From positions 1 through 7,833 of IMG/VR virus record IMGVR_UViG_638341082_000003: 7,833 bases of DNA; one strand, written 5' to 3'. How positions within the stretch are numbered: position 1 is the first letter of the stretch; the number at the start of each line of letters is the position of its first letter. The notes under the pieces are model-generated. The model saw only the letters and a list, made by a program, of their open reading frames with translations. It was not told where the DNA came from and did not search any database. Below, piece by piece: positions 1,621-1,697 of the stretch. The translations under genes were made by a program, and so were the position numbers. Source of the stretch: a virus (lineage: Duplodnaviria > Heunggongvirae > Uroviricota > Caudoviricetes).

Positions 1621-1697
1621 TGCGGGTCCTTCCGGTGGGGTGGCCTGCCACGGGGCGGAAGGCGCGCGGGTTTTCGCTATTTATGAAAATTTTCCGG
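1621..1697 (+). other. cos site core: cosQ-like region, cosN and the conserved start of cosB
   Basis: From memory of the lambda cos sequence, 1621-1638 and 1665-1697 (CGCGGGTTTTCGCTATTTATGAAAATTTTCCGG) match lambda nearly base for base. The 12-nt cohesive-end position 1653-1664 reads GGGCGGAAGGCG against lambda GGGCGGCGACCT. Confidence 0.8.

Follow-up and report, generated by a model that had tools for sequence, protein, structure and literature searches.

The stretch of DNA analysed here, referred to as the window, comprises 7,833 nt (positions 1 to 7,833 of the IMG/VR virus record IMGVR_UViG_638341082_000003). It carries a packaging region of the lambda type, in which cosQ, cosN and cosB are followed by the genes for the small and large terminase subunits, the head-tail joining protein W and remnants of further head genes (Table 1). 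The large terminase subunit gpA differs from its lambda homolog by the exchanges T151S, D185E and I459V, in agreement with an initial inspection of the letters alone (the sequence-only reading), which had described it as lambda-type. Two short open reading frames on the plus strand (1595-1759 and 1465-1686) cross cosQ, cosN and cosB, and phage IdasGreatGrand likewise has a similar frame across cos, which carries the annotation 'hypothetical protein' there. Both frames in the window probably represent false gene predictions on a stretch of regulatory DNA.

Table 1. Features of the window (slashes indicate nick positions; bp are counted from the left end of the lambda chromosome).
Feature	Position	Strand	Basis or remark
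cosQ heptamer GGGTCCT, packaging-termination signal	1624-1630	+	Also in the lambda right end and in every aligned phage
cosQ-cosN spacer TCCGGTGGGGTGGCCTGCCA	1631-1650	+	Sequence comparison; diverged, unlike lambda
cosN 16-bp nicking site CG/GGGCGGAAGGCG/CG	1651-1666	+	Homology
Equivalent of lambda bp 13-45	1665-1697	+	100% identity to lambda
I2, homolog of the IHF site	1682-1696	+	Mapped from phage 21 record M81255
cosB, phage-21 specificity	1702-1818	+	Mapped from annotated phage 21 sites (M81255)
R3	1702-1717 (bp 50-65, as in lambda)	+	1 mismatch to phage 21
I1	1724-1738	+	Phage 21 annotation; match not scored
R2 (inverted)	1760-1775		Identical to phage 21
R1	1803-1818	+	2 mismatches to phage 21
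Small terminase subunit, Nu1 homolog, 181 aa	1841-2386	+	Pfam Phage_Nu1, E = 6.9e-91
Large terminase subunit gpA, 641 aa	2361-4286	+	638/641 identical to lambda gpA
gpW, head-tail joining protein	4283-4489	+	100% identical to lambda W
Head-gene remnants (truncated B, 3' part of D, start of E)	4486-5836	+	Lambda comparison
Hypothetical protein, 369 aa	6179-7288		Segment right of junction 2
Tail-fibre assembly protein	7267 onward		Segment right of junction 2

The 12-mer GGGCGGAAGGCG occupies window positions 1653-1664 in the same register as lambda cosN, and the sequence across the cut site reads ...GGGTCCTTCCGGTGGGGTGGCCTGCCACG/GGGCGGAAGGCG/CGCGGGTTTTCGCTATTTATGAAAATTTTCCGG... The lambda reference record NC_001416 starts with GGGCGGCGACCTCGCGGG... 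(GGGCGGCGACCTCGCGGGTTTTCGC...). Both the placement of the 12-mer opposite the lambda cohesive end and the lambda sequence and register, which the sequence-only reading had used for its comparison and on whose correctness it had made its proposal depend, are therefore confirmed. Since the 33 bp to the right and the ACG plus GGGCGG to the left are common to the window and lambda, the register is free of gaps. Alignments of the 12-mer in any other register or with an indel were excluded because ACGGGGCGG upstream and the 33 shared bp downstream of it leave no room for a gap. The distance of 27 nt between CCGGTG (1632-1637) and CGCGGG (1665-1670), reported as unchanged in the initial inspection, is indeed also found in the lambda right end (...CCGGTGATCCGACAGGTTACG), and the 33 bp that had been called near-identical are fully so. 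Comparison with the lambda cosN GGGCGGCGACCT revealed differences at bp 7, 8, 9, 10 and 12, so that five of the 12 positions differ and not six as had been counted, C11 being retained. With 7/12 positions equal, the window 12-mer does not have the canonical lambda overhang. Base pairs 1-6 and the CG dinucleotides on both sides are identical to lambda, which bears out the described change of CGACCT to AAGGCG behind a conserved left half.

In contrast, the flank on the cosQ side, which had been taken to be near-identical to lambda, is diverged. Only 8 of 17 nt are identical in window 1636-1652, the 17 nt left of the nick, 2 of them inside cosN, and 12 of 21 when the 21 nt left of the nick are compared. 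The T-run behind cosQ is one T shorter, so that cosQ lies 22 nt from the top-strand nick in the window and 23 nt in lambda; the shorter spacing is also present in phi458 and mEp213. The spacer of the window is identical in phi458, similar in mEp213 and carried by 18 IMG/VR loci having the AAGGCG allele. In phi458 (OP434518, 604-650), this exact spacer precedes a different right half (GGGCGGGAGCGT) and the cosB side is unrelated. Based on the record starts of lambda and N15 and on PMC9026076, the top strand is predicted to be nicked at 1652/1653 and the bottom strand at 1664/1665, resulting in a predicted 12-nt 5' cohesive end of 1653-1664.

The surroundings are those of a lambda-like cos: the conserved left half GGGCG... 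and CG at each nick position are present within 1651-1666, a cosQ heptamer is located upstream at the conserved distance, cosB is arranged as R3-I1-R2-R1 with R3 at approximately bp 50-65, and terminase genes of the Nu1/A type adjoin. Eleven complete E. coli genomes, that of ETEC H10407 among them, contain this cos region (window 1500-1900) with 100% identity. The divergence in cosN is a real local mosaic patch rather than noise. Sequencing or assembly error was also considered as the source of the allele and was ruled out by its recurrence in hundreds of assemblies.

To the right of cosN, similarity to lambda ends at bp 45, and window 1698-1984 could not be aligned to lambda by BLAST. The isolated phage IdasGreatGrand has a cosB/Nu1 cassette that is 173/176 (window 1665-1840) and 540/546 identical; its cosN is canonical. 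Residues 1-48 of Nu1 are of the phage 21 type, and the lambda type begins at nt 1985 and includes the gpA-binding C-terminus (97.9% lambda). The recognition helix of the small subunit TerS (residues 17-24) reads RTIERWQS in the window, as in 21 gp1, compared to RTIQNWQE in lambda. With R sites and a TerS recognition helix of the 21 type, the window has the packaging specificity of phage 21. Judged by its sequence, Nu1 is a natural 21/lambda chimera, and its fusion point, located between the part that binds DNA and the part that binds gpA, follows the same domain logic as the laboratory lambda-21 hybrid terminases. A cassette of phage-21-type specificity (window 1698-1984, containing R3/I1/R2/R1 and the winged-helix domain of TerS) is spliced into an otherwise lambda-type Nu1/A operon, the two breakpoints corresponding to bp 45 and 335 of lambda. 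The left side and the cosN region of the window recur in E. coli E300010, but with a different cassette.

Compared to lambda, the window thus shares the cosQ heptamer, ACG/GGGCGG, the CG at both nicks, bp 13-45 and the position of R3 at bp 50-65, as well as gpA (99.5%), W (100%) and the C-terminal two-thirds of Nu1. It differs in cosN bp 7, 8, 9, 10 and 12, in the diverged spacer that is 1 bp shorter, in cosB and in Nu1 residues 1-48. Compared to phage 21, R3, R2 and R1 are nearly identical and the TerS helix is identical, but phage 21 combines the canonical cosN GGGCGGCGACCT with its own large subunit gp2, whereas the window combines AAGGCG with lambda gpA. As far as can be read from the letters, the window cos is a mosaic of cosQ with a non-lambda spacer, a variant right half of cosN, 33 bp of lambda and a 21-specificity cassette (cosB and the DNA-binding domain of TerS) that runs into the lambda-type C-terminus of TerS and then into lambda gpA. 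The combination of this left flank, AAGGCG and a 21-type cosB was not found in any isolated phage. Separately, each of the three segments is present in a different isolated phage, namely the spacer in phi458, the 12-mer in PhiR46_1 and the cosB/Nu1 cassette in IdasGreatGrand. Cleavage of this site by lambda terminase, which the sequence-only reading had proposed as an experimental test, would be confounded because cosB and the DNA-binding domain of TerS have phage-21 specificity; packaging assays on the window cos need a 21-specific and not a lambda-specific terminase. For the same copy of cos to be used, a helper phage of 21 packaging specificity would be needed.

The distribution of the allele was analysed with a 25-mer across it as query against IMG/VR, which detected AAGGCG in 77 contigs. 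For lambda-type cos sites of any allele, the 120 matches listed comprised approximately 7 with AAGGCG, 112 with CGACCT and one with CGACCG. Complete E. coli genomes were searched by megablast with a 36-nt query built so that every match must include the allele, and with an equivalent query for the lambda allele. AAGGCG was found in 166 places in 155 of 5,426 genomes, 16 of these places being on plasmids, compared to 7,458 places in 4,120 genomes for the lambda allele. Genome-end finders that search for GGGCGGCGACCT consequently overlook approximately 2% of the E. coli lambda-like cos sites. Among plasmid records, 23 phage-plasmids of mostly 42-62 kb (range 34-92 kb) from E. coli, E. albertii, E. 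fergusonii and Shigella sonnei carry AAGGCG. Nine matches were obtained in species-representative genomes, of which only the one in Escherichia sp. E1V33 has a cos context; the other eight were dismissed as chance matches in genomes of 65-75% GC. Two GenBank phage records, PhiR46_1 and YDC107_1, contain the 12-mer internally. The sequence-only reading had suggested searching for phage records that begin with it; such a start was not found, both records being in prophage or plasmid order. Since AAGGCG occurs with at least 12 haplotypes of the left flank and three types of cosB (lambda-like, 21-like and N15/Monarch-like), the allele recombines freely. A full-text literature search for the 12-mer yielded no phage-related paper, the sole match being an unrelated plant paper. 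A survey of natural cosN variation was reportedly published by Vahanian et al. in 2017. One 56-kb viral contig in IMG/VR (3300045988_113976) contains the AAGGCG cos in two copies and could represent two neighbouring elements or an assembly resembling a concatemer.

PhiR46_1 (PV340565) is an isolated temperate phage whose 12-mer and bp 13-45 are identical to those of the window. All its annotated genes from Nu1 to that of the side tail fibre are full-length; gpA shows 99.5% identity to the lambda protein and 99% to that of the window. Unlike the window, it has a left flank, a cosB and an Nu1 N-terminus that are all of the lambda type. Its lifestyle also differs from that of the window prophage, as it is an N15-like linear-plasmid prophage with telL/telR and ParAB, equipped with a lambda-type head and tail. 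The Phi-R phages are said to originate from a 2025 publication by Brenes and Laub. From the same source of phages, a panel of lambda-related temperate phages was used in plaquing assays in PMC13190303.

A survey of right halves other than that of lambda, from which the lambda allele was left out, used a search pattern that fixed the right-hand CGCGG and left only the left-hand part free. Following GGGCGG, AAGGCG was by far the commonest (77 sites), followed by CAGGCG (4), CAGACG (3), GAGCGT (2) and CTGACG, AAGCGT, AAGGCT, CGACCG and AGACCT (one each). Sites with T at bp 6 comprised GGGCGT-CAGACG (one) and GGGCGT-CAGGCG, the latter in 12 lambda-type cos sites (IMG/VR loci L224-L227 and eight others). 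Natural variation therefore extends to bp 6, and only ACG/GGGCG is constant. This motif was retained in 99 of 100 surveyed sites, likewise the right flank CGCGG, which the pattern had fixed. The respective right halves of individual phages are CGTCCG in N15, CGCGCT in mEp213 and GAGCGT in phi458.

This is in line with published work on cosN. Lambda-like phages commonly differ within bp 7-12, examples being positions 9 and 12 in N15 and phiD326 and positions 8, 9 and 11 in Gifsy-1 (Feiss et al. 2015, PMC4669245). Many mutations of the right half have a minimal phenotype: G2C reduced the yield approximately 10-fold and the symmetric C11G had no effect, an asymmetry that was attributed to the closeness of the right half to cosB (PMC4669245). 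Base pairs 7-12 are not under selection, unlike the CG flanks, the left half and the 7-bp cosQ, which is highly conserved (PMC4669245). Like the window, the variants described by the Feiss laboratory (N15, phiD326, Gifsy-1 and mEp213/LLS, GGGCGGCGCGCT) carry their changes within bp 6-12 and keep the left half and the CG flanks; N15 shares G12 with the window. Within this documented class of right-half polymorphisms, AAGGCG is a member that is new or has at least not been named. Its five changes exceed those of any variant named in the Feiss-laboratory literature examined, and published tests changed one to three positions of the right half at once.

This extent of change, at five of six positions and beyond any allele for which cutting has been tested, might indicate that AAGGCG is a distinct specificity class of cosN which requires a co-evolved terminase with altered endonuclease specificity. 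We compared 38 lambda-type gpA sequences located beside AAGGCG with 34 located beside CGACCT. No gpA residue differed in frequency by more than 0.5 between the two alleles, and the residue-by-residue analysis detected no association within the endonuclease domain. Residues 9 and 21 were weakly associated with the allele (p ~0.001-0.007, uncorrected), but they lie outside the endonuclease domain in the N-terminal part nearest to cos, which fits linkage. Five distinct gpA proteins were found with both alleles: exact lambda gpA also adjoins AAGGCG, and the exact window gpA adjoins the canonical lambda cosN in an IMG/VR locus (L110). In addition, TerL of lambda does not discriminate between right-half variants and acts equally on the cosN of lambda and of N15 (PMC4669245). 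AAGGCG hence occurs without a compensating change of the terminase, and a dedicated co-evolved enzyme is highly improbable. The mismatch between cosN and a lambda-type terminase had been considered notable in the initial inspection; it loses this quality as identical gpA proteins accompany either allele and bp 7-12 are tolerant (PMC4669245).

Considering the observed anatomy, distribution and lack of covariation with the terminase, we regard window 1624-1818 as a complete cos of the lambda family and GGGCGG-AAGGCG as a common, natural and tolerated allele of cosN that needs no change in terminase, a reading to which we assign a probability of nearly nine in ten. The suggestion of a natural variant cohesive end is supported by PhiR46_1, the 77 IMG/VR contigs, the 155 E. 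coli genomes and the 23 phage-plasmids. Where and how efficiently the window cos is cut is what we infer here, and nicking with a stagger of 12 bp draws indirect support from the presence of the same 12-mer in an isolated phage. In the model of Murialdo and Feiss (2022), TerS bound to R3 anchors TerL, which nicks between bp 12 and 13 (PMC9026076). Applied to the window, the phage-21-type winged-helix domain of TerS would bind R3, R2 and R1 of the 21-type cosB with IHF at I1, and the lambda-type C-terminus of TerS would hold the lambda-type gpA above cosN. The anchored gpA protomer would then nick the bottom strand between bp 12 and 13 irrespective of the bases at positions 7-12, as anchoring by TerS would set the position of this nick and gpA would thus need no particular sequence there. 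A second protomer would nick the top strand at the conserved ACG/GGGCG, which is intact in the window. The products would be 12-nt 5' ends, GGGCGGAAGGCG and its complement, and would match perfectly because both derive from the same site. As a well-sampled natural case in which five of six right-half positions are changed and gpA is not, AAGGCG adds to the established picture that TerL anchored at cosB ignores bp 7-12 and that only ACG/GGGCG and the distal CG are constrained.

The predominance of AAGGCG among the non-lambda alleles might alternatively be explained by its maintenance as a separate compatibility group of cohesive ends, limiting productive mixed packaging with co-resident lambda-type prophages or cos satellites. 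AAGGCG and CGACCT ends would be unable to anneal and cyclize because five of their 12 positions are mismatched and only seven pair, and a mismatch of two bases in the cohesive ends already costs approximately 4-fold in yield (PMC4669245). Moreover, many host genomes contain more than one lambda-type cos site, with a maximum of 8 places in a single genome. Nevertheless, one-step neighbours and other alleles exist, matching what is expected from drift, and the two ends of a chromosome normally derive from identical copies of cos within one concatemer, so that selection on the identity of the ends should be weak. We therefore consider maintenance by such selection very unlikely and allow somewhat more, though still little, for the notion that AAGGCG could distinguish a second group of compatible cohesive ends within the lambda-like phages and phage-plasmids of E. 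coli. Carriers of AAGGCG would in that case be partly isolated from productive mixed packaging with co-resident lambda-type prophages or cos satellites with canonical ends.

The window prophage, which is of the ETEC type, is itself defective and unable to make heads due to two deletions in the head genes. At junction 1 (window 5114-5117), B breaks off at lambda 3467 and continues with the 3' portion of D from lambda 5878. The deleted stretch, lambda 3468-5877, contains the remainder of B, the complete genes C and Nu3 and the beginning of D; the junction shows 2-bp microhomology (CC). At junction 2 (window ~5836; 5831-5840), E (lambda 6595) is joined to a segment of the tail-fibre region. Microhomology at both junctions amounts to 2-4 bp. 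The portal remnant covers 40% of lambda B, the remnant of E represents its first 45%, and C and Nu3 are absent.

The complete loss of C, Nu3 and the tail genes, together with that of most of B and E and of part of D, would agree with the other explanation offered by the sequence-only reading, that cos was inactivated by mutation during decay of the prophage. Yet exactly these five changes recur in hundreds of independent genomes and in an isolated phage, and changes in five of six bp beside 33 untouched bp do not resemble random decay. The positions known to be important are intact, namely bp 1-5, the CG flanks, cosQ and the spacing of R3. Intact head modules are also equally frequent beside both alleles: among loci whose sequence extends for 7.4 kb or more starting at cosN, full-length A, B, C and E were present together in 13 of 20 with AAGGCG and in 14 of 21 with the lambda allele. 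The allele is thus unlinked to decay, and inactivation of this widespread cosN has hardly any probability left. In other ETEC genomes, e.g. TW10828, the same cos as in the window adjoins full-length head genes, and the head genes beside it also look intact in strain 90-9280. As a tolerated natural allele, the copy in the window may nonetheless never be cut, since it resides in a defective prophage.

The sequence on the right-hand side of junction 2 (TATCTGATGCTCTCGCC) recurs in E. coli E300010 (L199, 11981) behind a truncated V gene; the window and E300010 therefore have the right end of the rearrangement in common and differ at its left end. In ETEC H10407 (L002, 26400-29015), the prophage with the identical cos carries ISCro1, an element of the IS66 family, inside the major capsid gene, and this copy is also defective, through another lesion.
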